A stretch of DNA of 64,000 nucleotides from Candidatus Doudnabacteria bacterium (GTDB lineage Bacteria > Patescibacteriota > Doudnabacteria > UBA920). This document shows positions 1 to 59,633 of this stretch, in pieces (positions within the stretch are counted from its first letter, which is position 1; each line of letters begins with the position of its first letter). The notes beneath the pieces were generated by a model, which did no database searches, was not told where the DNA came from, and was given only the letters and a program-made list of their open reading frames with translations. Location of the stretch: NCBI GenBank assembly GCA_003151625.1, contig PLYC01000007.1, positions 81,181 through 145,180 of the forward strand, read 5' to 3'. Position numbers and translations under genes: made by a program.

Positions 1-43
1 GACTAATGAACACGAATGAGAGACAAATAAACACGAATTAAAA

Positions 44-1891
44 ATGTCAATTTTCAGTAAAATCACCCCGGAAGAACTGGAACAAAAGAAGCAGAATCTT
101 AAACAGGCTGAAACCGAACGCGGTTTGAGCTCCAGTTTAGGCGACTTGGAAAAAACTTATCGCGAAGGTTTAACCACGCTAAAAGATTTAATCGCGCCGG
201 CCGCGCTTAAGTTTGACAGCTCATATTTTGAGCTTAACGGCAAATTCGGCAGGAGCTTTTTTGTCCTGGCTTACCCGAGGTTTTTATCCAGCAATTGGCT
301 GTCTTTTATTATCCAGGCCGAGGGCGCGCTGGATTTGTCCATGTTTATTTATCCAATAGATTCGGCGGAGATTTTAAAAAAACTCAAAAGTAAAGTCGGC
401 GAACTTGGCTCGCAAATGGCCATTAACACGGAAAAGGGCATGGTGCGCGATCCAATGCTGGAAACTGCTTACAAGGACGTGGAAGGTCTGCGGGACAGTT
501 TAATGCAGGGTACGGAAAAATATTTCCGGTTTGCTTTGTATTTTACAATTTACGCCACGGACTTAAAAGAGCTGGATAAATTTTCCAGCACCCTGGAAAG
601 CTCCCTGGGTTCCAAGTTAATTGTAACCAAGCGCGCGCTAATGCAAACCCAGAATGGGCTGAATTCCACTTTGCCTTTGGGTATGGACGAGCTGGATGTG
701 GCCAATAATATGAATACCAGCCCGCTGTCCTCCTGTTTCCCGTTTGTATCTTCGGACTTAACCAGCAACGACGGAATTTTGTACGGCATTAACCGCCACA
801 ACAACAGCCTTATTTTGTTTGACCGTTTTGCCATGGAAAACGCCAATTCCGTGGTTTTTGCCAAATCCGGCGCCGGGAAATCGTATGCCGTAAAATTGGA
901 AGTTTTGCGCAGTTTAATGGTAGGCACGGACGTCATAATTGTGGATCCGGAAAATGAATACCAGCATTTGGCCTCGGCCGTGGGCGGTACCTATTTGAGC
1001 GTGTCCTTAAATTCAGCCTCGCGCATTAACCCGTTCGATTTGCCCGTGGCCATAGAGGGAGAAAGCAATGCCGATGTTTTACGCACCGCCGTTATTAACT
1101 TGCTAGGTCTGTTTAGTCTTATGATAGGCAAGTTAAATCCCACGGAAGAAGCCTTAATGGATAAGGCTCTTTGGCAGACTTTTGCCAAAAAAGACATCAC
1201 TCCCGATTTGGCGGATTTTCGCGGAATGGAATATCCGACTATGAACGACTTGGTAGAAATTTTGAACAACATGGTCGGGGCGGAAAATTTGGGACAGCGC
1301 CTGACCAAATATACCGAAGGCACTTTTGGCGGCCTGCTTAACCAGCAGACCAATGTGGTGTTAAATAATCAGTTGGTGGTGTTTTCCATCCGCGATTTGG
1401 AAGAGGAACTCCGGCCAATAGCTATGTATATTATTTTAAATTATATTTGGAATATTGTGCGCAGTGAACTCAAAAAACGCATTTTGGCGGTTGACGAAGC
1501 CTGGATTTTAATGCAGCACGAAGATTCGGCAAGGTTTTTGTTCGGCATTGCCAAACGCGCGCGCAAATATTATTTGGGTCTGACTACTATTACCCAGGAC
1601 GTGGCCGATTTTTTGGCCAGCCCTTACGGCAAACCCATTGTTACCAACTCCTCCATTCAAATGCTGCTTAAACAGAGCCCTGCGGCTATTAATGTTATTG
1701 CCGAAACTTTCTTTTTAACCGAAGGTGAAAAGTATTTGCTGCTTGAAAGCGAAGTCGGCGAAGGGATATTTTTCGCGGGTCTGAAGCATGCGGCCATTAA
1801 AATTTACGCCTCTTACGTGGAAGACCAAATTATTACCACCGACCCCAAACAGCTTTTACAAATTCAGGACAGCCAGGATAAGCTAAATTAA
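44..1891 (+). CDS. VirB4/TrbE-family type IV secretion / conjugative-transfer ATPase (short form)
   Basis: 615 aa. Walker A motif AKSGAGKS, a later DEAW-type Walker B motif, and the overall VirB4 (DUF87/AAA-10) layout. Immediately followed by a large membrane protein. Confidence 0.7.
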   Translation: MSIFSKITPEELEQKKQNLKQAETERGLSSSLGDLEKTYREGLTTLKDLIAPAALKFDSSYFELNGKFGRSFFVLAYPRFLSSNWLSFIIQAEGALDLSMFIYPIDSAEILKKLKSKVGELGSQMAINTEKGMVRDPMLETAYKDVEGLRDSLMQGTEKYFRFALYFTIYATDLKELDKFSSTLESSLGSKLIVTKRALMQTQNGLNSTLPLGMDELDVANNMNTSPLSSCFPFVSSDLTSNDGILYGINRHNNSLILFDRFAMENANSVVFAKSGAGKSYAVKLEVLRSLMVGTDVIIVDPENEYQHLASAVGGTYLSVSLNSASRINPFDLPVAIEGESNADVLRTAVINLLGLFSLMIGKLNPTEEALMDKALWQTFAKKDITPDLADFRGMEYPTMNDLVEILNNMVGAENLGQRLTKYTEGTFGGLLNQQTNVVLNNQLVVFSIRDLEEELRPIAMYIILNYIWNIVRSELKKRILAVDEAWILMQHEDSARFLFGIAKRARKYYLGLTTITQDVADFLASPYGKPIVTNSSIQMLLKQSPAAINVIAETFFLTEGEKYLLLESEVGEGIFFAGLKHAAIKIYASYVEDQIITTDPKQLLQIQDSQDKLN

Positions 1892-1982
1892 TTTTCAATT
1901 AACAATTTTCAATTTTCAATCAAACCGCGAAATATCGCGGAGCAATTGAAAATTGCTAAATGAAAATTGAAAATTTTTTATT
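1892..1982. terminator. Long imperfect inverted repeat / hairpin between the VirB4-like gene and the giant protein gene
   Basis: caattttcaattttcaat ... ccgcgaaatatcgcgg (perfect palindrome) ... attgaaaattg...gaaaattgaaaat followed by a T-run. Confidence 0.4.
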
Positions 1983-4900
1983 ATGGCAACCCTTACTCCA
2001 ACTCAAAATTCTGCCGATGTTGAAAACCAAAAAGCCGGCGGGCGGGCCGGCGGACAAAATAGCGGCGGCAAGCAGTCTGGAACCTGGTCTATTCCCGGTT
2101 ATTTTTTTCTGGGTAGTAGGAGAATTGCAATAACCGAAATCAGGGTTAATAATGTTTCTATTCATCCTAATAATACTGGAGGGATCCGTCTTAAACACAA
2201 CGATAGAGTAACGTTTATAGGCTCCGGTTTGGAAATTTATAATGAGGCTGGGTTTTTAGGGGAAGGTTCAGGCGCAAGCTTAAAAAATATTTTAATCGCC
2301 CCGGAATCCGGTGGTTCAAAGCTTAGTTTTACGGTCCCGGATTTTGACAATAGCATAAAGGACGGCGGATATTTTTGGTTAAAATTATTTAGTAAAGTCT
2401 CCCGGGCGCAAAAGGTAATTGCGCCTTATTTGGTTTATGGGGTCGAGGAGACAGAAGAACAGAAGAAGCAGAAAAAGATATCAGAAGAAGAGGATAAAAT
2501 TAAAGGCCTAAAAACTGTCTTAACGCCCGGCCCAACGTCTCTGGTAATGGGTGCGATGGGTGGAGTTATCGGAGTGATAGCCAAGGCTACAGCCGGGATT
2601 GGCGGCAAGTCCGAAGCGGACAAAACAACTCCGGGCGGGAGGACAACGGTTCCCGGTGGAAAAGAAGTTGGATTAGGCGGAAAGTCTGGACAATCGGATG
2701 GTAAATCTGCGGGTGGGGCTGGAGCGGTGCCATCACCGGTTTTGGCTGGTCAGGCAGATGACGATTCCGACATGGACGAAGGTGATTTTGAACCTGCCGG
2801 GGAACTGGAAAAACCGGTAGAGACGTTTACGGAAACTTCTCAGCAAAGCGGGGAAACGGTGGCTGATTTTTTGCGCGAAAATTCGCAAATTACAGTGGGC
2901 CCCAAAGTGTTAGCGGCTCTGCAAAGCGGCAAACTGGAAAATTTAACGGAAAGTGAAAAAGTCAGCTTGGAGTCCGTAATTAAATCTGTTGCCTCGGGTC
3001 AGGGCGGCACTCCTTTGGAAGTTATGGCCGCGGCACAACGGGTTATTGAGTCGGTTGCCAGTCAGACAGTTACCAGTCAGGCAGAAAATCAGCCGGAAGT
3101 TAAAGCTGTTGATCAAGCACTTGGTGAAGCAGTAAAACAACCTTTAGTTCAAAGCGAAGTCAAAACATCCGCGGATTCCGGTCAAACCGCGAGCCAAAGC
3201 GCCAAGATTGTAGCAAAATTTTTACGGGAAAATCCCCAAATTAAAGTTGATGCTAAAGTTCTAGCGGCATTGCAAAGTGGCGATTTAAGCAAGTTAACAG
3301 CCCAGGAAGTATCAAGTCTAAAAAGTATAATGAGCGTAATGGCTCAAGGCCAAGGCGAAGCGACAGCTGAAGTAATGGCCGCGGTGCAAATGGTTGCGCG
3401 GGTTGTTACAGGCACAATTTCGGCTACAGTTACCGGAATGGGAGCAGTAAGCGGCACTGTCAGCTCAAAGGCCGTTAGTACGTCGGAAGTTAGCGCTGAT
3501 ATTTCTTCACAAACTTCCGGTGCTGTAAGCGGTACGGCTAAAGTTAGAGGTGGCGCGACATCGCAAATTTCCGGCACAGTAGAAAAAACTGTATCCTCTG
3601 AAGCAGGAGTTAAAACTGGAGGTTCGGTTAAGGTTGAAGGTGGGGCTAAAATTTCCGGACAACAGCAAGCCTCGGCAGGCGGCCGAGTGTCATCTGAGGC
3701 TGAAATAAACGCTAAATCGGAAACAGAAGTTGCCGCTCAAGGTTCGGCTAAGGCTGAAGCCACATCGGAATCCTCGGTTTCTTCCAAGTCCGAAGAGAGT
3801 TCAAAAGTTGGGGCTACAACCAATGCTGAGAAAAAAGTTTCGGGAAGCGAAGGAGGTGAAGTAGGAAAAATTGCCGTTTCCGGAGAATTGGGAACCGAAC
3901 CTAACCAAGTTAGTCCGCAAGGACTCACAGCAGATGGTAAATTGACTGCAGACATCGACACGAATTTAAAATCCACTCTAAAACCGGAAACCGGCGAGGG
4001 TTCAGAGAATTTGGAGGAACCACAGCCGTCTTTGGGAAAAGGCGCGGTTGATGGCATAAGTGTTGAAAAGGAGACTGCAGGCCAGCCTGAGGAAGAAGCC
4101 GCGTCAGAAATAAAAACAACAGCAGTTTCAAAACAAACTCCGGCCGCGACTAAGCCACGGGCTAAATCGGAAGCTGAAATAAAACAGCCGCAGACCGGCG
4201 GGGGAGCTTCGGACATTGCGAAGCGTCTAAAGGAAAGAGGCTTGGAATTAGAATTGACTTTGCGCGGAAAACTTGCCGGGCCGTCTTTAAATGTTTCTGA
4301 TCAAAAGCAAAAACCTGCCGCAGGACAGAAAGGGGAAGGCGCCCCAAGTCAGCAACAGCCGATTCTTTCGAAAACCGGGACATCAAAGGAACGCGGAATG
4401 TCCGCACCATTGGGTGATTTGCCAGGGTCAAATAGGCAAGATGGCCAAGAATCAGCAGGCCGCGCAATTGATTCCGCAAATCGGCCGAAGGAACCGTCGG
4501 CGGGTGATGGGAAAAAATCTCAGGCCGAGGCACAAGATCAGGCGCCTGATGCATCATCGAGCAATGGTGGCGGTGGTTTACCGGGGTCGCCACCCGAAAA
4601 GGGAGAGACGCGAGACTTAGAACCATCAAGCGGATCGGCTTTGCCACCTTCGGAGAGCAATCGCGATCAGGGTAATGTTTTTAAAGATCCAAGAGGTGCC
4701 GGTGATATGTTTGGTGAAGCTTTGAAAGGTGACGTTAGTCCAAACCCCGCTGCTTACCCTACCGCAAGAAGACAGATAGATTTGGCAGGCAAAGGCATTG
4801 GCAAGGCTTCCAGCAAAATTTGGTATTACGGTTTTGGTTCGGCTACGGCAACTTTTTTTACAGGCGCGGATTTTATGCTCGGCGCCGTGGTTATGGATGC

Positions 4901-5198
4901 TTATTGGCTGTTTGGACACAAAAAAAATCCCGAACTGTTTCCCTTAAAAGGATGGCAGAAGGCTGTTACCGTTGCCGCCAATGTTATTCCGCCAATCTTG
5001 ATTATGCTGATTTTTGCTTTAATAATGGCCGTGGGGTGCAACTATCCTTTACCGATTAAAACATCAGCCGGTAATAGTTACCGCCTTACAGTTATTGGAG
5101 CGTTTATTGGCGATGACTGTAAATATTTTGATGTTTCAAATATAACAGCATCAAACACCACTCCCGCCTCAACCCAATCAGGCTCACAAAAACCCTAG
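1983..5198 (+). CDS. Giant repetitive surface/membrane protein (A/S/T/E/G-rich) with C-terminal transmembrane segments; possible T4SS/pilus-associated partner of the VirB4-like ATPase
   Basis: 1071 aa with a low-complexity core. It contains a ~70-aa internal tandem duplication (ADFLRENSQITVGPKVLAALQSGKLENLTESEKVSLESV... then AKFLRENPQIKVDAKVLAALQSGDLSKLTAQEVSSLKSIM...). Two or three hydrophobic helices lie in the last ~130 aa. Confidence 0.6.
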   Translation: MATLTPTQNSADVENQKAGGRAGGQNSGGKQSGTWSIPGYFFLGSRRIAITEIRVNNVSIHPNNTGGIRLKHNDRVTFIGSGLEIYNEAGFLGEGSGASLKNILIAPESGGSKLSFTVPDFDNSIKDGGYFWLKLFSKVSRAQKVIAPYLVYGVEETEEQKKQKKISEEEDKIKGLKTVLTPGPTSLVMGAMGGVIGVIAKATAGIGGKSEADKTTPGGRTTVPGGKEVGLGGKSGQSDGKSAGGAGAVPSPVLAGQADDDSDMDEGDFEPAGELEKPVETFTETSQQSGETVADFLRENSQITVGPKVLAALQSGKLENLTESEKVSLESVIKSVASGQGGTPLEVMAAAQRVIESVASQTVTSQAENQPEVKAVDQALGEAVKQPLVQSEVKTSADSGQTASQSAKIVAKFLRENPQIKVDAKVLAALQSGDLSKLTAQEVSSLKSIMSVMAQGQGEATAEVMAAVQMVARVVTGTISATVTGMGAVSGTVSSKAVSTSEVSADISSQTSGAVSGTAKVRGGATSQISGTVEKTVSSEAGVKTGGSVKVEGGAKISGQQQASAGGRVSSEAEINAKSETEVAAQGSAKAEATSESSVSSKSEESSKVGATTNAEKKVSGSEGGEVGKIAVSGELGTEPNQVSPQGLTADGKLTADIDTNLKSTLKPETGEGSENLEEPQPSLGKGAVDGISVEKETAGQPEEEAASEIKTTAVSKQTPAATKPRAKSEAEIKQPQTGGGASDIAKRLKERGLELELTLRGKLAGPSLNVSDQKQKPAAGQKGEGAPSQQQPILSKTGTSKERGMSAPLGDLPGSNRQDGQESAGRAIDSANRPKEPSAGDGKKSQAEAQDQAPDASSSNGGGGLPGSPPEKGETRDLEPSSGSALPPSESNRDQGNVFKDPRGAGDMFGEALKGDVSPNPAAYPTARRQIDLAGKGIGKASSKIWYYGFGSATATFFTGADFMLGAVVMDAYWLFGHKKNPELFPLKGWQKAVTVAANVIPPILIMLIFALIMAVGCNYPLPIKTSAGNSYRLTVIGAFIGDDCKYFDVSNITASNTTPASTQSGSQKP

Positions 5199-5294
5199 CG
5201 TTCTTATTACAAGCCTAGAGCCATAATATTGCAGGATATCAGCGTATTTTGCTTTAACCGACAAACTGCCGGCTGGCACAAGTTGCTCCCAGCC

Positions 5295-5323
5295 TTGACA
5301 GGTTTTTTAAAATTTTATAAACT
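5295..5323 (+). promoter_or_regulatory. sigma70-like promoter for the AbrB/RelE toxin-antitoxin operon
   Basis: TTGACA, then a 17-nt spacer, then TAAACT. Confidence 0.5.
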
Positions 5324-5377: not shown

Positions 5378-5665
5378 ATGGTTATTGTTACCGTAAAAAA
5401 TAAATATCAGGTTGTTATTCCACAGAGTTTGCGCAGGCAGGTCGGGGTTAACGTTGGCGATTTAATGGATGCCCAGGTGAAGAAAGGTAAAATAATTTTT
5501 GCCCCAAAAACATTACTGGACCGAGATTTGCTAGATAGTGTGGCCGAAAGTATGGCTGAGTATAAAGCGGGTAAGTTTTATGGTCCATTTGATAACCATA
5601 AAGATTTTATCGCGTCCCTTCATAGGGAAGCAAAAAAACTAAAAAAAGCTCGCAAACAAAAATAG
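5378..5665 (+). CDS. AbrB/MazE/SpoVT-family antitoxin
   Basis: 95 aa. N-terminal swapped-hairpin motif VVIPQSLRRQVGVNVGD. Lies 2 nt upstream of a RelE-like gene. Confidence 0.7.
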   Translation: MVIVTVKNKYQVVIPQSLRRQVGVNVGDLMDAQVKKGKIIFAPKTLLDRDLLDSVAESMAEYKAGKFYGPFDNHKDFIASLHREAKKLKKARKQK

Positions 5666-5667
5666 CC

Positions 5668-5913
5668 ATGAGGCTGGTTTTTACCCCAAAATTTATTAAA
5701 AAGTATGTACAAGCGCCTTCGGAAATTCAACGGGCTTTTGATAAACAAAGCAAATTTTTATTATTCAATATTCGCTACCCTTCTCTTTACGCCAAGAAAT
5801 ATGATGAGAGCGGGGACTTATGGCAGGCGCGGGTTAATCTTGATTGGCGGTTTTATTTTACTATTGAGGGCGATGAGTATCGTCTGCATGATATAAAGGT
5901 TCATTCCAAATGA
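5668..5913 (+). CDS. RelE/ParE-superfamily toxin (type II TA system)
   Basis: 81 aa, with a ...WQARVNLDWRFYFTIEGDEYRLHDIKVH C-terminus typical of RelE/ParE. Tightly coupled to the upstream antitoxin gene. Confidence 0.65.
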   Translation: MRLVFTPKFIKKYVQAPSEIQRAFDKQSKFLLFNIRYPSLYAKKYDESGDLWQARVNLDWRFYFTIEGDEYRLHDIKVHSK

Positions 5914-6086: not shown

Positions 6087-7253
6087 ATGAACAAAAAAGC
6101 TATTGCCATTTTGGGGGCCATTTTCCTGTTGATTGTGGGAACTTTGGGATTTTTAATATATTCCAAGTATTCGGGCAGTAAAACTCCAGCCCCGGCTCCA
6201 GCCGCTGTAAATAACAACGCAACATCCACCGATACCAGCCAGCCAACACCAACAAACACAGCTTCCAGCACGCCACAAACCCAAAACAATTCGTCGAATA
6301 TTGTACAACTCACTTCGGATCAAGTTGTCTCGCCGGCATTATTTTTTAACGGCACGGGCATAAGTTATTTCGACCACCAGGGGAATTTGTACCAGGCTAC
6401 TTTACAAAATAATAACGGCCAGTTGCAGTTAACATCAAAAAAACAGCTTGATATACCTTTGAAGCCGGGTATGACTAAAATTTTATGGCCGTCCAAAGGT
6501 AACGACTTTATTGCTCAGTTTACGGATGCCAGCGGCAAAAATACCTGGAGCTACTTTAACAGCAATTCCGGCAGTTATACCAATTTGCCCAGCCAGGTGG
6601 AATCTGTTGACTGGATGCCCACAGGGGACAAAGTTATGTATGTATGGTTGGATAACAACAAGGCCGCTTTAAGCCTGGGAAATCCCGACACCAGTAAACA
6701 TCAAACCCTTGGCGCGATGTGGGAAATCGACGACCAGATACATGTGTCGCCAAACGGTTCGCAAGTGTTATATTTTGAAACCCAAAACACCTCGGCCAAC
6801 AATTTTATTAATTCCGTAAGTTCGGACGGCAAAACGTGGAAAGGGCTGGTAAAAAACGGCCAGAATTTTGGCAGTTTGTGGAGTCCGGACGGGCAAAAGT
6901 TTTTGTTTGGTAAAAAGGATCCCAGCACGCAGAATTATCAGCTTTGGGTCTATAACCTAAATTCCGGGGAAATTAAAAATTTGGGGTTGTTTACAACCGT
7001 GGATAAGGCGGTCTGGGATAAAGACAGTAATGTGATTTATGCCGCGGTGCCGACTTCCGGAATTATTGGTGACAACAGTCTGACTGTTGACAGTTTTTAC
7101 AAAATGGACACTTCCACTTTGGACAAAAAACAATATACTTCCTCGGGCGCTTCCATAGACGGCAGGGATTTATTCTTAAACTCCACGTCGGATAAATTAT
7201 TTTTCAGGAACGCACAGGACGGGGGATTATATTATTTAGACCTCACACAATAG
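6087..7253 (+). CDS. Secreted/membrane-anchored beta-propeller protein (TolB/PD40-like repeats) with a T/S/P/Q-rich linker
   Basis: N-terminal TM helix, a low-complexity linker, and repeated motifs SPNGSQVLYF and WSPDGQKFLF typical of PD40/TolB-like blades. Confidence 0.5.
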   Translation: MNKKAIAILGAIFLLIVGTLGFLIYSKYSGSKTPAPAPAAVNNNATSTDTSQPTPTNTASSTPQTQNNSSNIVQLTSDQVVSPALFFNGTGISYFDHQGNLYQATLQNNNGQLQLTSKKQLDIPLKPGMTKILWPSKGNDFIAQFTDASGKNTWSYFNSNSGSYTNLPSQVESVDWMPTGDKVMYVWLDNNKAALSLGNPDTSKHQTLGAMWEIDDQIHVSPNGSQVLYFETQNTSANNFINSVSSDGKTWKGLVKNGQNFGSLWSPDGQKFLFGKKDPSTQNYQLWVYNLNSGEIKNLGLFTTVDKAVWDKDSNVIYAAVPTSGIIGDNSLTVDSFYKMDTSTLDKKQYTSSGASIDGRDLFLNSTSDKLFFRNAQDGGLYYLDLTQ

Positions 7254-13024: not shown

Positions 13025-14278
13025 CTACTTTACAAATTGTGGACTCGGGGGTTCAATTATAAACGAGCCGGTTACAGTGCTTGTGTCGTTAGCCGCTGTC
13101 GCGTCCGAATTGTTGTGGTAATATTGGGTGCTGCTAGAATTTTGTGAAGAAGGTTTTTTTAAATTTGCACCCGCTAGAGTGGAAGTCGCGGTTGTTGAGG
13201 TTGAACTGCTGGGCGTTTGGGTTGAGACGGCTTTAACCTCTGGCTGGTCGGTGGTGGTCGCTGTTTCAGATTGGTCACTAGAGGTAGCGGTTACAAAAAT
13301 TTGTTGGGCAATAAGTGTATCGTTGCTTTTTTCTCCAACCACGCTAACCTTGTCTCCACCCTGCAAATCGGATGGTAAAAGATTACCGCCGGAGTTATCT
13401 TGAATTGTGGTTTGTGATGTTATGTTAAAAGTAATTTGTTCCACTGTAACGCTACTGCTCGTGGCCTCGCTAATTAAACCAAAAGCCGCCACGGAATTGG
13501 GATCGGAACTTAATTTGGCCAGAGCTTCCTGGTCGTTACTGGCAACGGCTATGGTTTGCTTAATTGCCGAAAGTTTGGCTGTGTCGTTGCCTAAGGCTAA
13601 AAGGGCGCTGTTGGCTGCAGTTTTAATTTGGCTGTCCGGTTTTATCGCGCTTAAAAGGTTTTTTTGCCCCTGAGTGATGCTATCCAAAGAATTTAACAAC
13701 GGATGGCTGTCAGCCGATTTGGGATTTGCCGCCGCTACGGTATTAACTTCCGCCACGGCACTGGTGGTTTGGGCGGAAAGTTCGTTTAAGGCGGCAGTTT
13801 TTTGTTCCGTATTACTGGTAGGGTCGTTAAAAATTTGTTGCGCCGCGCTTAAGCGGTTTTGCGCGATTTGAATTTGCAAGCTGGCTTTTTGGTTTTGGTT
13901 GGAGGCCAAAATTAGTTGGAGATTTTCTTCCTGTTTTTTTAAGGGAAACAAAATTTTGCCGGGAAGACTGTTGGAAGCTTGATACGCGGTAACCGAGAAG
14001 GCGCTTATGAGCAGCATTACCGCCACGCTGACACTTGCAAATTTAGACATATGCAGCCAAGCCAGCCACAACCTTTTAGAAGGTGCCACGGCATATTTAC
14101 GGCGCATTAGCGGCGTAGGAACAATATTTTTTGGCATGGACAGAAGCTTAGAGCTAATATCCAAAAGGGGAGCGAGCTCATTTCTGTATTGGGCAAATTT
14201 AACCAGGACTTCCTCTTTGGGGGAGCCTTTTTTTATCATTTCCAGTGCCTGGTTGTAAATTTCGTCAATGTTAGTCAT
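13025..14278 (-). CDS. Putative anti-sigma factor (single-pass membrane protein, extracytoplasmic S/T/Q-rich domain)
   Basis: Overlaps the upstream ECF sigma gene by 8 bp. It has a short cytoplasmic N-terminus, one TM helix (FASVSVAVMLLISAFSVTAY) and a long extracytoplasmic region. Confidence 0.5.
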   Translation of the reverse strand: MTNIDEIYNQALEMIKKGSPKEEVLVKFAQYRNELAPLLDISSKLLSMPKNIVPTPLMRRKYAVAPSKRLWLAWLHMSKFASVSVAVMLLISAFSVTAYQASNSLPGKILFPLKKQEENLQLILASNQNQKASLQIQIAQNRLSAAQQIFNDPTSNTEQKTAALNELSAQTTSAVAEVNTVAAANPKSADSHPLLNSLDSITQGQKNLLSAIKPDSQIKTAANSALLALGNDTAKLSAIKQTIAVASNDQEALAKLSSDPNSVAAFGLISEATSSSVTVEQITFNITSQTTIQDNSGGNLLPSDLQGGDKVSVVGEKSNDTLIAQQIFVTATSSDQSETATTTDQPEVKAVSTQTPSSSTSTTATSTLAGANLKKPSSQNSSSTQYYHNNSDATAANDTSTVTGSFIIEPPSPQFVK

Positions 14279-14864: not shown

Positions 14865-15037
14865 TTGTTACAGGTGCTGAATATTAGGCAATAAATAGGG
14901 GATTCTGGCAATAAAGCTTAAATTTTATACCCCTTTGTCCTATTTTACCATATATTACGGTTTTTTGGCTCCTTTAGGCGCAAACGTTGAAAACAATGGG
15001 CACCATCGTGCAGCACAATGTTGCCCATTGTTTAGCG

Positions 15038-16102
15038 CTAAAGCATCGTAATCGGTCTGGACTGGGTAATATAGAATTTCCCGTTTTCAAAAGCCCACTC
15101 AATGTCCTGCGGTTTGCCGTAATGTGTTTCTATATTTTTGCAAATTTTGGCAATTTCCACTATTTGCTTGCCGGTAAGTTTTTGTTTGCCTCCGGTTGCC
15201 TTGTCTAATTTCTTATTTCTATTTCCTGTTTTCTCTCTTACTATGGCAAAAGTTTGCTCGGAAACATTTATGTCCAAAATGGAAAAATTGTTTTTGTGAA
15301 CAATATAAGTGTCCGGAGTAATCATGCCGCCGACAATAGCTTCTCCCAAACCAAAACCGGCTTCCACCACCATTTGGTTCTTGTCTTTGGTTACCGGGTG
15401 CACGGTAAAACTAATTCCGGAAACCTCGCTTTGCACCATCTTTTGCACCACAACCGCCACGGAAATCCTTGTGTTTATTCCCCTCCCTTGCTTGTCCGCC
15501 GTAGCTTTAGCGAAGGAGGGACGGGAGGGGTGGGGGGAGGGTGATTTTTTTGTTTTGTAAAACCCTTTCTCAAAAGCATAAAAAATTGCCCTGGGCGTAA
15601 ATAGCGAAGACCAGCATTTTTTTACACTGGCAATAACATTTTTTTCCGTTACATTCAAATAAGTTTCCAGCTCCCCGGCCCAGGAAGCAACCGATGAGTC
15701 CTCGGCCGTGGCGCTAGATCTAACGGCTACAAACTGGTTTATTCCCCTCCTGCCCGAGGAGGGGTTAGGGGAGGTGGGAGATTTTTTAAACAGCTGATGA
15801 TACGCCTCCATAATCTCTTTCTGCAAATCCTCCGGAATAACCTCATCCAAAATCATCCTGCGGATTTCCGCCGAAGCCTTGTCCACAGAATTAACATCCT
15901 TATGGTTGACTTTTTTCAGCAACGCCTCTATATCCGCCTCAATCTCCGTCTCCTCCAAAAATCTGTCAAAAGCACCCGCAACCACTACAAACCCTTGCGG
16001 CACCGGCAATCCCGCCTTAGTCATTTCCCCGAGCGAGGCTCCCTTGCCCCCAGCAATGTCGACATCTTTTTTTGAAATTTGCCCAAAAGTTTTTATGTGC
16101 AT
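15038..16102 (-). CDS. Stand-alone PPDK_N / PEP-synthase-type ATP-grasp (nucleotide-binding) domain protein, with two in-frame REP insertions
   Basis: GGKGASLGEM motif, VAVRSSATAED, VAVVVQKMV and DIEWAFENGKFYITQSRPIT, which are hallmarks of the PEP synthase / PPDK / rifampin-phosphotransferase ATP-binding domain. Extra segments SPTSPNPSSGRRGIN and KKSPSPHPSRPSFAKATADKQGRGINTR coincide with REP DNA. Confidence 0.8.
   Translation of the reverse strand: MHIKTFGQISKKDVDIAGGKGASLGEMTKAGLPVPQGFVVVAGAFDRFLEETEIEADIEALLKKVNHKDVNSVDKASAEIRRMILDEVIPEDLQKEIMEAYHQLFKKSPTSPNPSSGRRGINQFVAVRSSATAEDSSVASWAGELETYLNVTEKNVIASVKKCWSSLFTPRAIFYAFEKGFYKTKKSPSPHPSRPSFAKATADKQGRGINTRISVAVVVQKMVQSEVSGISFTVHPVTKDKNQMVVEAGFGLGEAIVGGMITPDTYIVHKNNFSILDINVSEQTFAIVREKTGNRNKKLDKATGGKQKLTGKQIVEIAKICKNIETHYGKPQDIEWAFENGKFYITQSRPITML
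15476..15544. repeat. REP family 1 variant (composite with the cgctaaagctacgg hairpin) inserted in frame in the PPDK_N gene
   Basis: ttattcccctcccttg...ccgccgtagctttagcgaaggaggg...acgggaggggtggggggagggtga. Confidence 0.75.
15738..15779. repeat. REP family 1 variant inserted in frame in the PPDK_N gene
   Basis: tttattcccctcc-tgcccga-ggaggggttaggggaggtggga. Confidence 0.7.
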
Positions 16103-16858: not shown

Positions 16859-16914
16859 GGTTAACAACTTTAGTATGCCTGAAAGATAGAAAGTTGTTAA
16901 CTAAGTTGTTAACT
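16859..16914. promoter_or_regulatory. Inverted/direct repeats gttaacaacttt / aaagttgttaac / aagttgttaac upstream of the RHH antitoxin gene (candidate operator)
   Basis: Perfect 12-bp inverted repeats plus a third direct half-site. Sits at the standard position for TA autoregulation. Confidence 0.45.
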
Positions 16915-18390
16915 TATTATTTTCCTAACAATTCCTTTATTTGCATCCACTTCCACCAATTCGCCGTCTTTAAAATTTTTCATAGCGTTGTTTAAGGCGA
17001 CAATGCAGGGAATGCCAAATTCTCGGGAAACAACTGCCGCGTGGCATGTTAGGCCGCCGACTTCGGTAATTATGGCCGCCGCGCGTTTCATTGCCGGAAG
17101 ATAATCGGTCGTCGTTGCGTAAGTAACTAATATATCGCCCTGTTTAACTTTGCCGTTGTCTTTGGGGTAGGGGACAATACGGATTTTTCCCGTGGCTTTT
17201 CCGGGACTGGCGCAAACCCCTTTATTTTCATCCCCACCCTGAACTGGCTTTACATAACTTTCTATGTACTTAAAAAGTTTTTCGGTTTCTTTGGCTGTAA
17301 ATTCAATCCGTTTTTGGATTTTTCTGTCAAAGCCCCAACCCGCGTATTTGCCCTTTTCTTGAAGCAGTTTAACGGTATCTATTTTTCCCAGTAAGGCTTC
17401 AATTAGTTCCTGTTCAGTTAAAGTCCGTAATTGATTAACAGACAAAAAAAGCCTTTTTGCTATTTCATCGTATAAAGGCAGTAAATAAAAACTCCCAAAG
17501 CTGACAAAATATTCCGCTTCGTTCCTGGTGTCAATGGCTAACCCAAAATCTGTAAATATTTGCAAGTCTTTGGGTTTAAATTTGTACTTATTAATTAAAT
17601 GTTTGATTTCTCGAGCCCTTATTTTAGTATAGTTTTTTATCTGCCCGTATTCTTTATTCAATAGATTCAAGGGCTTACTTAAGTTTACTTTTAGTTCTTG
17701 CTGGTAGTGTTTGGCTTGCCAAGGTTCGCCAAAAGTGAATACCGGTAACCAGCCAAATTTTTTAGCCAATTTTTTTGAAGCTTTATCTAAAGTTGTTGCA
17801 CCATTTTTTATACATAGTATTTCTTCGGTAACCGCCATTTTTTCTTTTAAGGTGGTTGACACTTCTTGTGGTTTGGTAAGTTTAAACAAAACTTGGTTAT
17901 AATCTTCGGAGCCTCTCCGTAGCCCGTATTTATTAACTAAAACTTTTTCCATTAAAGGTGGCCAGTATTCATCCCCAAGCCACGCGAACTGGTCATAAAC
18001 AGCCAGATGTTGAATACGATCGCGAATAAGGCGGAAGTGTTTAATTAGTTGCCAGTTAGTTAGTTTAGAAAAATCAATTTTTTTTGAAACATCTTTTTTT
18101 GATTTGGGAACCAAATTGTAGAAAGTTTTAAGCTTCTTTTCCATGCCTTTAAAATTTTTTGAAGATATCTTTCCAATCCGATTATGCAAGATCTCCAAAT
18201 AGCTTTTGGGCGTGTACATATGCTGGTAACCGTCAGCCAAAGTATGTATGGCTAAGTTGCCTTTGGGAATGCCAAAAAGCTTTTTAAAGTAATGATTCGT
18301 GTTCTCCCCGTGCCACGTTTCACTGTCCAGAGGCAACAAAGCCCATTGGCCCATTTTTACGACCTTGGTTTTAAAGTAGTGGTGTTTCAT
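16909..18390 (-). CDS. RPH/PEP-synthase-family protein: unknown ~390-aa N-terminal domain fused to a C-terminal PEP-utilizing-enzyme mobile (phosphohistidine swivel) domain
   Basis: C-terminus [26 protein letters not shown]...[10 protein letters not shown] is the PEP-utilizers His domain. No ATP-grasp or TIM-barrel domain is present. Paralogous to the adjacent gene. Confidence 0.7.
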
Positions 18391-19892
18391 AGTTTTTTTA
18401 CTATCCCTTTATTCGCGTCCACTTCCACCAAGTCGCCATCTTTTAAAATTTTAGTGGCGATTTTGGTGCCAATTACGCAGGGGATGCCGAGTTCACGGGA
18501 GACTATGGCGGCGTGGGAGGTTATGCCGCCTTGTTCTGTTACTATTGCTCCTGCCAGCTTCATCGCCGGTACTATATCGGGATCTGTTGCGATTGAAACT
18601 AAAATGTCTCCCTTGTTCATTTTGTGGATGTCCTTGGCGCGCAATATAAGTTTAACAACGCCTTTGGCATATCCCGGCTGGGCGGTTTGGCCTATCAGCT
18701 CTTTTTGGTTTTTATCAAAAATACGGCCTAAATTTTTGGTAAGTTTTTTTAAAGTTGAACCGGTATAAATGGCCTCAAAATCTTTTTCTGTGTAAAGAAC
18801 GCATTCTTTAAACCTATTTTGCAAGTCTTTTTTGCTTAAAATTTTACCTCTCAGCAACGCTTCCTTAACCTCGCCGTAAAGCATAAACTGGACTTGGTAG
18901 CGCGTGCGGTTAAGCCTTTTGGCTATTTCCGGCAATAGGGAAGTGTGCATTGAGTAAAGGCAAAACAGCTGGGCATGGCGGCGCACCAGTTTGGTTAAGG
19001 CAAAACCCTGGGCTGTGGTAAAAAGATTCCGGTATTGTTTGGAAATATTGTATTTTTTGTATATGGCCGCTTGTTTGTTTTTTGCTGATTTTAGTTGAGC
19101 CCTCTCTTTTTTTAATATTCCATTGGCGCTAATGCCGCTTGATGCCAAATCTTGCAGTTCTTTTAGGTAGTGCTCCGGACCAAATGGTTTTACATTCCCC
19201 GCGTAAATATAGCCTAAGTGCCCCCATTTGGCGCTGTGTATTTTTAAAGCCGTCTTAAATTCCTCGTCGGGTTTTTTGAGCGATTTTTTGTATTTATTAT
19301 AGATATTCAAAAAATCCTCCCTCTCCTGGGCGACTATGGTTTTTTGGGAGGGGGTGGTTAAAACAATAAAAGCATTTTCCGCGTCCTGTTTGCTGTCGCA
19401 AACCGAATACAGGTAGCTTTTTAGGTTTTTGGTAAAGTTATTATGGAACATATCTACAGCCACAGGCAGCCAGCCGTAGGTGTAGAGTTTGGTGTGAATT
19501 TTGTCCTGCTCCGCGTAAAGTTCCCAAAGATGCTTATTGGAGTATTTTTGCAATGGCAGTTTGGAAGTTTTTTTAGAAAAATTAATTAGGACGTAAGACC
19601 ATTTTAAAATATTTTCATTTAAATTTTTTCCAAAATTTGGCCTTGTGAGTAAAGCTTTTAGTACGCTCTCGCCGACCAAAAAAGAATCCTTTTCTCCCAA
19701 ATAAAAATCCATATGGAATTTTTTGTAATGGGTGAGGACTTTGCTGTAATTTTTTAGGAATGGGTAGCTGGTGTCGCTGCAAAAAGCCGACATTGGAATT
19801 TGGAAAAAGAACACATCGCTGTCCGGAATTTCCTCGGCCAACAGCCATGGGTCTTTGTCTTGTAAAAATTTTGGGGTGGGAGATTTGGGCAT
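18387..19892 (-). CDS. Paralogous RPH/PEP-synthase-family protein (unknown N-terminal domain plus PEP-utilizer His domain)
   Basis: C-terminus [26 protein letters not shown]...[13 protein letters not shown]. It overlaps the downstream paralog by 4 bp. Confidence 0.7.
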
Positions 19893-37868: not shown

Positions 37869-37911
37869 TTGATGGGCACCATTTGGGGTGGCCCCAGATG
37901 GTGCCCATCAA
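37869..37911. other. 43-bp perfect palindrome (14-bp stem) downstream of the 37323 gene
   Basis: ttgatgggcaccat-ttggggtggccccag-atggtgcccatcaa. Confidence 0.6.
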
Positions 37912-46463: not shown

Positions 46464-46466
46464 CAA

Positions 46467-46514
46467 GCATTTAGCGGTTAGCAAAGCAATTTTGCTTGGC
46501 TAACCGCTAAATGC
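46467..46514. other. 48-bp hairpin with a 16-bp perfect stem between mreC and mreD
   Basis: gcatttagcggttagc-aaagcaattttgctt-gctaaccgctaaatgc. Confidence 0.6.
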
Positions 46515-46533
46515 TAAATGCTAAAAGCTTCTA

Positions 46534-53915: not shown

Positions 53916-54022
53916 GTAAAATTAATTAAAAATAAATAAAATTAAGTAAAATTAAGTAAAATTTACTGCGGATAATTTTGGTCAATTTTACTTAATCATG
54001 GTCAATTTTATTTAATAAATTT

Positions 54023-59537: not shown

Positions 59538-59633
59538 AAGATATTGATAGATATTATTGAAATTAGGATATTATCTGAAATTTCATTAATATCTACCAAT
59601 ATCAATAATATCTATAAATATCCATTTGATTAC

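Follow-up and report, generated by a model that had tools for sequence, protein, structure and literature searches.

We found that positions 44 to 5198 of the window, the 64,000-nucleotide stretch of Candidatus Doudnabacteria DNA analysed here as a whole, are the 3′ end of a chromosomal, Patescibacteria-type type IV secretion system (T4SS) gene cluster. This T4SS type has already been described (2023–2025) and is related to monoderm conjugation systems of the MPF-FATA class; the two genes below are the tail of a known cluster.

44..1891 (+), VirB4-type T4SS ATPase, 615 aa, linker and ATPase part only
1983..5198 (+), putative T4SS-associated membrane protein, 1071 aa, here called BIG as a working name, a hydrolase-less member of a Doudnabacteria-restricted family

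Both ORFs had been called with the same limits in an earlier note made from the sequence alone. On balance, BIG is probably the counterpart, in this lineage, of monoderm "cell-wall" subunits of the VirB1 type, with the lytic module deleted in this genome.

The upstream part of the cluster was examined on L001, a longer contig covering the window plus upstream sequence. Within 8.3 kb upstream of the window it encodes TrsD-like, PrgI/VirB3-like and VirB6-like proteins and two unknown ones, giving the order VirB6-like, 514-aa unknown, 389-aa unknown, PrgI/VirB3-like, TrsD-like, VirB4, BIG, propeller protein, RadA and RecG; relatives L002 and L003 have the same upstream gene order. The PrgI-like gene matched its Pfam profile above cutoff (E 9.8e-8), and the VirB6-like gene matched TrbL in Pfam (E 4.2e-4) and had a precomputed TrbL_3 match, so that VirB3-like and VirB6-like translocon genes are co-encoded with VirB4. 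No VirB6, VirB8, VirB9, VirB10 or VirD4 match was obtained inside the 64-kb window, as the earlier note had stated. The statement is literally right, but it reflects the window edge, which cuts the cluster directly downstream of the VirB6-like, PrgI/VirB3-like and TrsD-like genes, and the "minimal" two-gene apparatus suggested there does not stand. Its suggestion that the locus may be a T4SS of episymbiotic CPR bacteria (Patescibacteria) is supported by the upstream genes and the published gene set.

The cluster resembles the described systems (Wang et al., 2023, PMC10633639; Quinonero-Coronel et al., 2025, PMC12102498) in its monoderm-type VirB4 with an adjacent, separate TrsD-like N-domain gene, its PrgI/VirB3-like and VirB6-like genes, the absence of a relaxase and a coupling protein nearby, its chromosomal place beside radA and recG, and a cell-wall hydrolase function encoded right after virB4. 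A matching gene set, including TrsD beside VirB4 and no relaxase, has been reported, as have radA/recG neighbours for class ABY1 (PMC12102498), and the homologous cluster of Saccharibacteria was found essential by Tn-seq (PMC10633639). Doudnabacteria are not named in either study. Unlike the described systems, this cluster showed no VirB2-like pilin genes in the window or the 8 kb upstream, and its "hydrolase" position holds a giant head-stalk-anchor protein, the hydrolase being lost in this genome. Between BIG and radA one further gene is always syntenic:

6087..7253 (+), 388-aa TolB-like beta-propeller protein whose N-terminus has a TM helix

The 615-aa ORF is a VirB4 ATPase and an ordinary member of the described system. 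It matched NCBIfam NF045971 (VirB4-like, conju_CD1110 family) with 353.8 bits against a cutoff of 325, and the TraC, VirB4_CagE and TrbE models as well as Pfam P-loop_TraG (E 2.3e-27) and AAA_10 (E 2.6e-10) also matched. A HerA/FtsK identity was rejected, the HerA model reaching 14.5 bits, in line with the earlier call. The Walker motifs are invariant in the VirB4 alignment:

860..883, Walker A, AKSGAGKS (aa 273–280 of the 615-aa VirB4)
1481..1504, Walker B, ILAVDEAW (aa 480–487 of the 615-aa VirB4)

The protein is 72–96% identical across about 35 Doudnabacteria genomes, with a dN/dS of 0.02. The NF045971 match spans profile positions 176–728 of 752, and the N-terminal, membrane- or VirB3-interacting domain is thus absent from the polypeptide. 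VirB4 appears compact because this domain is encoded by a separate TrsD-like gene:

1..6 (+), last codon and stop of the TrsD-like gene (227 aa; L001 9280–9963), cut by the window edge

In NCBIfam, the 227-aa protein matched TrsD (E 7.7e-5), positions 10–120 of VirB4 CD1110 (E 5e-4) and positions 95–233 of VirB4_plasma (E 8e-9). A VirB4 split from its N-domain gene is the norm in Patescibacteria (PMC12102498).

BIG had been described as an A/S/T/E/G-rich protein with an internal tandem duplication and C-terminal hydrophobic helices. Its composition agrees with this (G 12.4, S 11.1, A 10.8, K 7.7, E 7.6, V 7.2 and T 6.8%), and the window copy gave no Pfam, NCBIfam or PHROGs match. We could delimit the following parts:

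2094..2447 (+), IPT/TIG-like beta-sandwich N-terminal domain (aa ~38–155)
2535..2609 (+), Gly/Ala/Met-rich motif after the N-domain (aa 185–209), weakly hydrophobic (Kyte-Doolittle value, KD, 1.6)
2832..3074 (+), helical repeat unit 1 (aa 284–364), a unit also found in P0002
3183..3434 (+), helical repeat unit 2 (aa 401–484)
4818..4916 (+), hydrophobic helix TM-a (aa 946–978), the weaker helix, with invariant Gly, Asp and Trp
4962..5039 (+), strong TM helix TM-b (aa 994–1019, KD 2.7), preceded by a K/R-rich loop
5037..5132 (+), conserved Cys loop, C1019...C1046 (GCNYP...VIGAFIGDDCKYFD), just after which orthologue hydrolase modules attach

Relative to the closest relative, the entire N-domain cassette has been exchanged. 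The position of the Gly/Ala/Met motif (AF2 pLDDT ~40) is conserved, but in most orthologues the motif contains D or E and has a KD below 1.1, which rules out a conserved TM helix. The two repeat units are 53.6% identical over 84 columns (58% at the DNA level), with an alignment score of 185 against 41.5 ± 7.1 for shuffles (maximum 75). The duplication is thus real, yet diverged and not head-to-tail, and Tandem Repeats Finder did not detect it. A collapsed-repeat assembly artefact, which the earlier note had considered, is refuted by the presence of the same protein on several contigs and by a 71%-identical orthologue from an independent JGI assembly, in which both units are kept. Of the two hydrophobic helices, TM-a has a KD of ~1.3 in the window copy vs. 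~1.8–2.3 in most orthologues. The AF2 model of the membrane/Cys region was unusable (pLDDT 44.6).

Three other identities were considered for BIG. The suggested VirB6/TrbL-like nature of its C-terminus was rejected, as there are two helices and no Pfam match even at E ≤ 5; VirB6 proteins are polytopic with five or more TM helices, and the likeness consists of hydrophobic helices only. The VirB6-like protein encoded upstream is unrelated to BIG and coincidentally also 1071 aa long. A VirB2/TrbC-type pilin was likewise dismissed for the C-terminal hairpin, which gave no TrbC or T4SS_pilin match at E ≤ 5 and ends a 1071-aa protein without a leader, whereas T4SS pilins are small and have a leader peptide; only the helix, basic loop, helix layout of a membrane-embedded hairpin is shared. 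Finally, a Gram-positive LPXTG adhesin (PrgB-like) does not fit, since no orthologue has a hydrophobic N-terminus or a C-terminal LPXTG.

About 33 Doudnabacteria loci have a BIG-type large ORF, always directly downstream of virB4, on the same strand and after a short spacer. BIG belongs to an undescribed, unannotated and lineage-restricted accessory family, for which 1.84 billion protein clusters contain only 50 representatives. Its members have in common an IPT/TIG-like N-domain (29 of 33 orthologues), a hypervariable, low-complexity stalk of 500–800 aa, two hydrophobic helices and the Cys loop, the membrane region and the loop being widely shared. About half of the orthologues additionally carry swappable peptidoglycan-hydrolase modules of the SLT, SLT_3, glucosaminidase or VanY-like kind. 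Pfam SLT_3 was found above cutoff in L014, L016 and L041, and SLT at or near cutoff in L008 and L009, while VanY-like tails occur in P0002 (Pfam VanY E 0.006, below cutoff), L013, P0008 and P0026; among 51 family members, SLT_3 was present in 10 and Glucosaminidase and SLT in one each. Modules have been swapped within the family. The two main tail types covary perfectly with two types of a downstream bitopic gene of ~150–190 aa, of which type 1, linked to SLT, weakly resembles TcpC/VirB8 (TcpC E 9.5e-5, below cutoff). The lytic modules together with the type-specific bitopic genes therefore suggest a VirB1-like cell-wall subunit whose N-terminal arm is giant. In 14 of the 33 orthologues, from several subclades, the lytic module is absent and head, stalk and anchor are kept, so wall cutting may not be what the family has conserved as its core function.

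In the window copy, the VanY-like module has been deleted. Neither this event nor the link of the family to hydrolase modules had been part of the earlier note. A trace of the module lies past the BIG stop codon:

5245..5298 (+), out-of-frame remnant FALTDKLPAGTSCSQP plus stop, the 3′ end of the deleted VanY-like peptidoglycan-peptidase module

In tblastn, its 17 codons were 94% identical over 17 aa to the tail of P0002, and blastn showed that positions 13363–14036 of L003 are missing from the window, with flanks matching at 97%. The small bitopic partner gene is likewise absent from the window lineage, and no SLT-like ORF was found in the 64-kb window or the 10 kb upstream. Such losses could mean that the BIG ORF has become functionless and is turning into a pseudogene. 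The out-of-frame remnant, the missing partner gene (VirB8/TcpC-like in the SLT-linked type) and a relaxed dN/dS (0.25–0.33 against the 71%-identical orthologue, vs. 0.02 for VirB4) point in this direction. Yet no interruption of the frame occurs over 3.2 kb, dN/dS stays well under 1, the module-less orthologues of several subclades retain the remaining architecture, and both the start codon and the layout of the hairpin before it are conserved. The remaining ORF is under purifying selection, and we regard its decay as improbable.

Comparison with monoderm systems supports a VirB1-type reading of the family. In monoderm bacteria, VirB1 homologues (PrgK and TraG, for example) have extracellular hydrolase domains joined through a membrane anchor to an intracellular part (PMC12857230). 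Like PrgK (pCF10), TraG (pIP501), CwlT and TcpG, BIG is predicted to be membrane-anchored and is encoded within the T4SS cluster, and its family would share with these hydrolases the succession of a non-enzymatic N-terminal part, an anchor and extracellular lytic domains, as well as a VirB8/TcpC-like partner. TraG and CwlT combine a glycosidase with a peptidase, and so does orthologue L013 (SLT plus VanY-like). There are also differences: the N-terminal part reaches 700–950 aa where the monoderm hydrolases have a short intracellular segment, two hydrophobic helices replace the single one, and even close relatives have swapped or lost modules. The hydrolase domain itself is present in orthologues but not in the window copy, which therefore lacks the defining VirB1 activity, so that the role of this copy is one we infer. 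Head, stalk and anchor matched no known T4SS component, either in sequence or in fold.

As a VirB1-type subunit, BIG would be a membrane-anchored protein seated at the translocon, whose extracellular C-terminus would carry interchangeable peptidoglycan-lytic modules in the orthologues. Ahead of the anchor, the family would have acquired an IPT/TIG-like head on a low-complexity stalk, and this arm evolves far faster than the rest of the cluster. The window copy still has head, stalk, membrane anchor and Cys loop; lacking a hydrolase of its own, it would serve as a scaffold or tether, and wall cutting, if needed, would come from another locus.

It is conceivable that BIG is instead a cell-envelope protein that lies between virB4 and radA by chance and plays no part in the T4SS. 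Taken by itself, synteny says little about such a part, because radA and recG, as well as the propeller gene, are equally syntenic, and the window copy is without homology to known T4SS components. However, BIG always comes right after virB4 in the arrangement described above, and the lytic modules of its orthologues are followed by a TcpC/VirB8-like gene, these being the two "cell-wall complex" parts of monoderm T4SSs. Hydrolase genes at this position downstream of virB4 are, moreover, reported to be essential in Saccharibacteria (PMC12102498). A chance neighbour thus seems very improbable.

To infer the topology of BIG, we counted charged residues in 32 orthologues. The inter-helix loop contained 205 K/R vs. 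81 D/E, the flank before TM-a 42 vs. 57 and the flank after TM-b 49 vs. 17. Together with the Cys-rich lytic tails of orthologues, which are necessarily outside, and the Cys pair after TM-b, this charge bias would give an N-out, C-out orientation. Such a topology is inconsistent with a simple anchor, as the arm of 700–950 aa is predicted outside, yet no export signal was seen: the 33 orthologues contained no signal peptide, N-terminal TM helix, LPXTG or prepilin motif, and their N-termini are acidic and polar.

With such an orientation BIG could be a surface fibre or adhesin, the second option of the earlier note, in which the IPT/TIG head and stalk would be outside, the C-terminal helical hairpin would serve as anchor, and the protein would bind the host of the epibiont after Sec-independent export, possibly via the VirB4 machine. 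Besides the charge pattern, this is consistent with a TM-a of KD ~2 with aromatic residues at both ends in most orthologues, with an Ig-like fold of a kind common in surface proteins and with repeat copy numbers that vary between relatives. BIG also diverges more than any other gene of the locus (14% identity vs. 96% for VirB4), its N-domain cassette is exchanged between genomes with 99% identical VirB4, and the arm has 4 Cys in 22,095 residues vs. 0.44% Cys in the other window proteins. On the other hand, disordered regions evolve fast in any compartment, and the signal-less 514-aa neighbour is about equally divergent. The Gly/Ala/Met motif after the head offers no conserved TM helix either, and export signals are absent throughout. 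To our knowledge, signal-less translocation of an N-terminal tail of 700–950 aa is unprecedented. We therefore consider a surface fibre possible but unlikely.

More doubtful still is a reading by analogy, in which BIG would be cargo of the VirB4 machine and not a static subunit, comparable to a phage tape-measure/ejection protein or a polymorphic effector, and the T4SS would either present it at the surface of the epibiont or place it in the host bacterium's envelope. Polymorphic toxins and phage tape-measure or ejection proteins resemble BIG, as analogues only, in a long signal-less N-terminal region with hydrophobic segments near the C-terminus, and its family in interchangeable C-terminal muralytic modules with a module-specific small downstream gene. 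A displaced-module remnant past the stop codon recalls polymorphic toxins, as does the covariation of module and downstream gene types, both of which are lacking in the window. Yet the PHROGs search gave no sequence similarity to phage proteins, the stalk is low-complexity and not coiled-coil, the type-1 downstream gene is TcpC/VirB8-like and not immunity-like, and there is no known pre-toxin motif. If true, the cargo reading would resolve the paradox of an arm outside without an export signal and account for the hypervariability, the exchange of head cassettes, the almost complete exclusion of Cys from the arm and the module-specific partner genes. BIG would then be the first candidate substrate for the coupling-protein-less Patescibacteria T4SS.

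In the one tractable species, epibiotic growth depends on the Patescibacteria T4SS, whose cargo and whose passage across the two cell walls are standing questions. Doudnabacteria put at the "VirB1 position" an unannotated head-stalk-anchor protein, the fastest-evolving gene of the cluster, which exchanges its head domain and lytic end-modules between close relatives and can lose the lytic module altogether along with the small partner gene. Module-bearing and module-less clusters thus form a natural series for asking which "cell-wall complex" parts are dispensable and whether the variable arm is a host-recognition or a substrate element.

Two spacers flank virB4 in the window:

1..43 (+), TrsD–VirB4 spacer, with a solo copy of a ~38-nt repeat, GACTAATGAACACGAATGAGAGACAAATAAACACGAAT
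1890..1975 (+), AT-rich imperfect hairpin with 7-nt tandem motifs around a GC core, CCGCGAaataTCGCGG

The virB4–BIG spacer comprises 91 nt (1892–1982), and the inverted repeat noticed earlier is indeed there, albeit imperfect, with 41-nt arms that are 78% complementary. The predicted RNA hairpin has −29.5 kcal/mol and z = −7.15, none of 200 shuffles folding equally well, and a T-run 3′ of it abuts the BIG ATG at 1983. Homology to L003 ends at ~1920, within the hairpin, and nearly all related loci have a hairpin of like architecture but other sequence in this spacer. Hairpin and T-run may act as a terminator, attenuator or processing site, which would uncouple BIG expression from virB4. Elsewhere in the cluster, the ~38-nt repeat of the first spacer makes up the 5′ arm and the beginning of PDDEXK_3 genes, and relative L003 carries a full PDDEXK_3 gene at the TrsD–VirB4 spacer position.

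The two ORFs that open the window were recovered as the earlier note had placed them:

44..1891 (+), VirB4-type ATPase, 615 aa
1983..5198 (+), large protein, 1071 aa

The assignment of the first to the VirB4-type ATPases held, as the 615-aa protein scores 353.8 bits against a cutoff of 325 for the NCBI curated VirB4-like CD1110 family. It is also matched by the TraC, VirB4_CagE and TrbE models and by Pfam P-loop_TraG and AAA_10, and carries Walker A (AKSGAGKS) and Walker B (ILAVDEAW) motifs. An FtsK/HerA identity was ruled out, with HerA giving 14.5 bits only. The CD1110-family match starts at profile position 176 of 752, indicating that the N-terminal domain is absent from this polypeptide. 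A scan of species-representative genomes revealed VirB4 relatives at 72-96% identity in about 35 MAGs, for which the informative titles are Candidatus Doudnabacteria and many are the generic 'uncultured Candidatus Saccharibacteria'; remoter copies were found in Gracilibacteria, Berkelbacteria and Nanosyncoccus.

By exact-sequence look-up, the gene sits on a 78.9-kb metagenome scaffold extending past window position 1. The genes 5′ of that position are ordered as follows, starting with the farthest upstream (coordinates are those of the longer contig L001):

VirB6-like polytopic protein, 1071 aa, L001 1705-4920, TrbL_3 and TrbL matches
514-aa protein without assignment, L001 4942-6486
23S_rRNA_IVP gene
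389-aa protein without assignment
PrgI/VirB3-like gene, Pfam E 9.8e-8
PDDEXK_3 fragment
TrsD-like protein, 227 aa, stop at window position 6, NCBIfam TrsD match

The 227-aa protein also matches two VirB4 models in their N-terminal portions (positions 10-120 and 95-233) and, taken with its TrsD match, thus supplies the domain missing from the 615-aa protein. The VirB6-like and large proteins are unrelated, and their shared length of 1071 aa is a coincidence. The published set typical of Patescibacteria has TrsD beside VirB4, PrgI and VirB6, is chromosomal and has no relaxase or coupling protein nearby; in class ABY1 the T4SS cluster was reported to adjoin recG and radA (PMC12102498). Southlakia epibionticum cannot grow epibiotically without the homologous cluster (PMC10633639; PMC12857230). 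The ATPase and its cluster are biology already known. The remaining window genes are housekeeping ones (RadA, RecG, ClpB, SecA, GatA/B, PBP2, RseP, NusG, L11, L1, ThyA, DHFR).

The large protein is rich in G, S, A, K, E, V and T, and its two Cys are both C-terminal. Neither Pfam nor NCBIfam nor PHROGs gives a match, and homology to phage tape-measure proteins was rejected on the PHROGs search. The internal duplication claimed earlier is real (aa 284-364 vs. aa 401-484, 53.6% identical, alignment score 185 vs. 41.5 ± 7.1 for shuffles), but a 36-aa gap separates the units, so that they are not directly in tandem. The DNA of the units is 58% identical and Tandem Repeats Finder detects none, so that the duplication is old and not a collapsed repeat; the units recur in an independent assembly, and the suspected assembly artefact can be dismissed. 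What had been described as a two- or three-helix anchor comprises, by hydrophobicity, two helices, a strong one at aa ~994-1019 and a weaker one at aa ~946-978. A VirB6/TrbL or pilin identity of these helices was ruled out, as was an FHA-like cytoplasmic domain for the N-terminal head, whose fold is IPT/TIG-like.

The large protein belongs to a small, undescribed family. Four relatives came from a word-indexed search of 5.8 billion proteins, while exhaustive phmmer against 1.84 billion cluster representatives yielded no more than 50 matches, mostly of 800-1370 aa, 19 of them at E <= 1e-30. A 29-sequence N-domain alignment, used as a profile against the 5.8-billion-protein set, gave no match and was uninformative. 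Local HMMs and alignments defined four parts of the family:

Part 1, N-terminal domain (head) of ~105 aa, in 29/33 orthologues
Part 2, short Gly/Ala/Met-rich motif
Part 3, low-complexity middle (stalk), not conserved
Part 4, C-terminal unit: hydrophobic helix TM-a, K/R-rich loop, helix TM-b, Cys...Cys loop

In the Doudnabacteria loci one large ORF of 541-1371 aa always follows VirB4 across a short spacer; then come, in many cases, an ORF of 150-190 aa, a ~385-aa propeller protein and RadA. The window's propeller protein (6087-7253, 388 aa) has a TM helix at its N-terminus, a linker rich in Ser/Thr/Pro and a TolB-like beta-propeller; every Doudnabacteria locus has its gene, at 45-86% identity, between the large ORF and radA, and it could encode a further T4SS envelope part or be unrelated.

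Past the Cys loop, about 19 of the 33 orthologues continue into a Cys-rich tail of 150-440 aa. Pfam SLT_3 matches above cutoff in three related loci (L014, L016, L041) and just below it in L031, and SLT at or near cutoff in three more (L008, L009, L013); among 51 family members of an independent set, SLT_3 was found in 10, Glucosaminidase in 1 and SLT in 1. The closest relative, P0002 (VirB4 99% identical), has another tail type with an SxHxxGxAxD-like motif and a weak VanY match (E 0.006, below cutoff). In L013 this VanY-like tail comes after the SLT module, and it is also present in two other relatives, P0008 and P0026. Neither tail (SLT-like or VanY-like) and neither type of small downstream gene had a significant match in PDB sequence searches.

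There is perfect covariation between the SLT and SLT_3 tails and the small bitopic protein (150-190 aa) encoded immediately downstream, which is of two unrelated types, as determined from L006-L009, L012-L014, L016, L018, L022-L024, L031, L036, L038, L040, L041 and L043.

Tails of the large protein and downstream partner genes
SLT tail, type 1 gene: 10 loci
SLT_3 tail, type 2 gene: 8 loci
Tail not matching the SLT_3 model, type 2 gene: a ninth locus, L028
Neither SLT/SLT_3 tail nor partner: 15 loci with a complete large ORF, including the window; L003 among them has a VanY-like tail

Type 1 has a sub-threshold match to TcpC (VirB8-like; E 9.5e-5), and type 2, with two conserved Cys, has no match. 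The role of the small protein could be that of a structural partner or that of an inhibitor akin to an immunity protein. In monoderm T4SS, the 'cell-wall complex' has two parts, VirB1-like hydrolases and VirB8-like proteins. [quoted passage not shown] The lytic tails, the weakly VirB8-like partner and this layout together make the family a probable VirB1-type subunit, with an exceptional N-terminal arm (head and stalk). We thus take the large protein to be a hitherto undescribed VirB1-type T4SS subunit, a variant restricted to this lineage and present in the window genome as a module-less derivative.

Comparison with the related locus L003 by blastn shows how the window copy lost its module. 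Homology extends up to window 5143, followed by 76 unmatched bases and then by 97% identity from 5220, and L003 13363-14036, encoding the VanY-like module, is missing. The last 17 codons and stop of the module (FALTDKLPAGTSCSQP*) remain out of frame at 5245-5298, and the present stop (5196-5198) lies ahead of this remnant; a comparable 25-codon remnant is kept in L042. A search of the window and the 10 kb upstream for a lytic gene that could stand in found none, nor any SLT-like ORF. Judged by substitutions relative to L003, the remaining ORF is still constrained (dN/dS 0.25-0.33 over codons 171-1055; VirB4 0.02). Module-less orthologues of several subclades (L002, L004, L005, L015, L017, L020, L025, L029, L042) share a short C-terminal motif, [VIL][TNA][PA][RK] (e.g. 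PVTPRSP, GVNAR, GVNPR), while the window protein ends in ...SGSQKP without it. A MazE/AbrB-type antitoxin gene (5378-5665, Pfam E 2.3e-8) is followed 2 nt on by an 81-aa ORF (5668-5913) without family match, likely its toxin. The pair is confined to the window and L003 lineage and fills the slot of the small bitopic gene elsewhere.

On which side of the membrane the arm lies is paradoxical. A cytoplasmic arm is supported by the lack of a signal peptide or N-terminal TM helix in any orthologue, and PrgK is a precedent for an intracellular N-terminal part, which is sizeable in PrgK and much shorter in TraG (PMC12857230 section 10). The topology would be explained if the Gly/Ala/Met motif at aa 185-209 were a signal anchor, but this was rejected family-wide, most orthologues having charged residues there. 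An external arm, on the other hand, is favored by TM-a, which in the majority of orthologues makes a good TM helix (KD ~2, Trp at each end), and by the strongly positive TM-a/TM-b loop (205 K/R vs. 81 D/E), the outer flanks not being so. The Cys-rich lytic tails, moreover, must be outside, and with two helices and the C-terminus outside, the N-terminus would be outside as well. Cys make up 205/5,587 tail and 4/22,095 arm residues; other window proteins average 0.44%. We know of no route for export of a 700-950-aa N-terminal tail without a signal. An AF2 model of the C-terminal 167 aa was too poor to use (pLDDT 44.6). The main rival reading, a surface fibre as the earlier note had suggested, we regard as possible but rather unlikely, and the large protein is probably a conventional membrane-anchored T4SS subunit, the reading kept as best. 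That it is itself cargo delivered by the T4SS, the most novel of the readings, seems improbable to us. Its moderate interest rests on the hypervariable arm of head and stalk, on the way modules of the cell-wall complex are gained and lost, and on the paradox of its topology.

Divergence within the cluster is very uneven.

Full-length identity of the cluster's proteins to those of the related locus L002
VirB4: 96%
TrsD: 89%
RadA: 87%
Propeller protein: 78%
PrgI: 77%
389-aa protein: 38%
VirB6-like protein: 34%
514-aa protein: 23%
Large protein: 14%

Between the window and L003, DNA homology is absent over the head (1920-2453), with synonymous sites saturated, and the flanks are 86-99% identical. 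The window's head is closer to the one in L002, the more distant relative, which indicates exchange of head cassettes; one breakpoint falls inside the spacer hairpin. In the stalk, P0002 has an additional copy of a 40-aa unit. The VirB6-like and 514-aa proteins are hypervariable too, with ~60% identity to L003 over alignable stretches (VirB4 there 99%) and, in most other relatives, 20-35% and 7-23%, respectively, over full length. Beside the conserved VirB4, this makes the cluster a mosaic of highly conserved and very fast-evolving genes.

The 91-nt spacer between virB4 and the large ORF, earlier read as a long inverted repeat, indeed holds an imperfect one with 41-nt arms, 78% complementary, the second longest of only 13 inverted repeats of at least 20 nt in the window. 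The predicted hairpin (-29.5 kcal/mol, z = -7.15) was equalled by 0/200 shuffles. Its arms are runs of 7-nt motifs around a core, CCGCGA-aata-TCGCGG, and a T-run follows, abutting the ATG. Nearly every related locus has such a spacer, a long AT-rich hairpin of short tandem motifs that differs in sequence by locus and in many is followed by a T-run reaching the start codon. A promoter scan of the spacer gave a single weak match (9/12), inside the hairpin. The hairpin may be a terminator, an attenuator or a processing site and would then separate virB4 expression from that of the downstream gene.

Further long intergenic hairpins occur in the window at 53921-54016, 46466-46515, 59540-59603, 14991-15033 and 37869-37911; the first, with 43-nt AT-rich arms of tandem motifs, is in the style of the virB4 spacer hairpin. 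Within the T4SS cluster, intergenic hairpins enclose small PDDEXK_3 and 23S_rRNA_IVP genes (L001 1243-1708 and 8800-9255; L003 7545-8045). Their arms are short repeats, CACGAAT-type in L001 and CACGGAT-type in L003, and supply the codons for the first and last residues of the enclosed ORFs. The enclosed genes are present or absent among genomes with 96-99% identical VirB4, and a solo 5′ arm alone occupies window 1-43, the TrsD-like/virB4 gap, which in L003 is filled by a complete gene. The enclosed genes have the look of mobile elements akin to 23S rRNA intervening sequences. Elsewhere in the window, pyruvate phosphate dikinase-like functions appear split over three ORFs (15038-16102, 16909-18390 and 18387-19892, all on the - strand), of which one is a PPDK_N domain only and two adjacent ~500-aa paralogues each end in a PEP-utilizers mobile domain.
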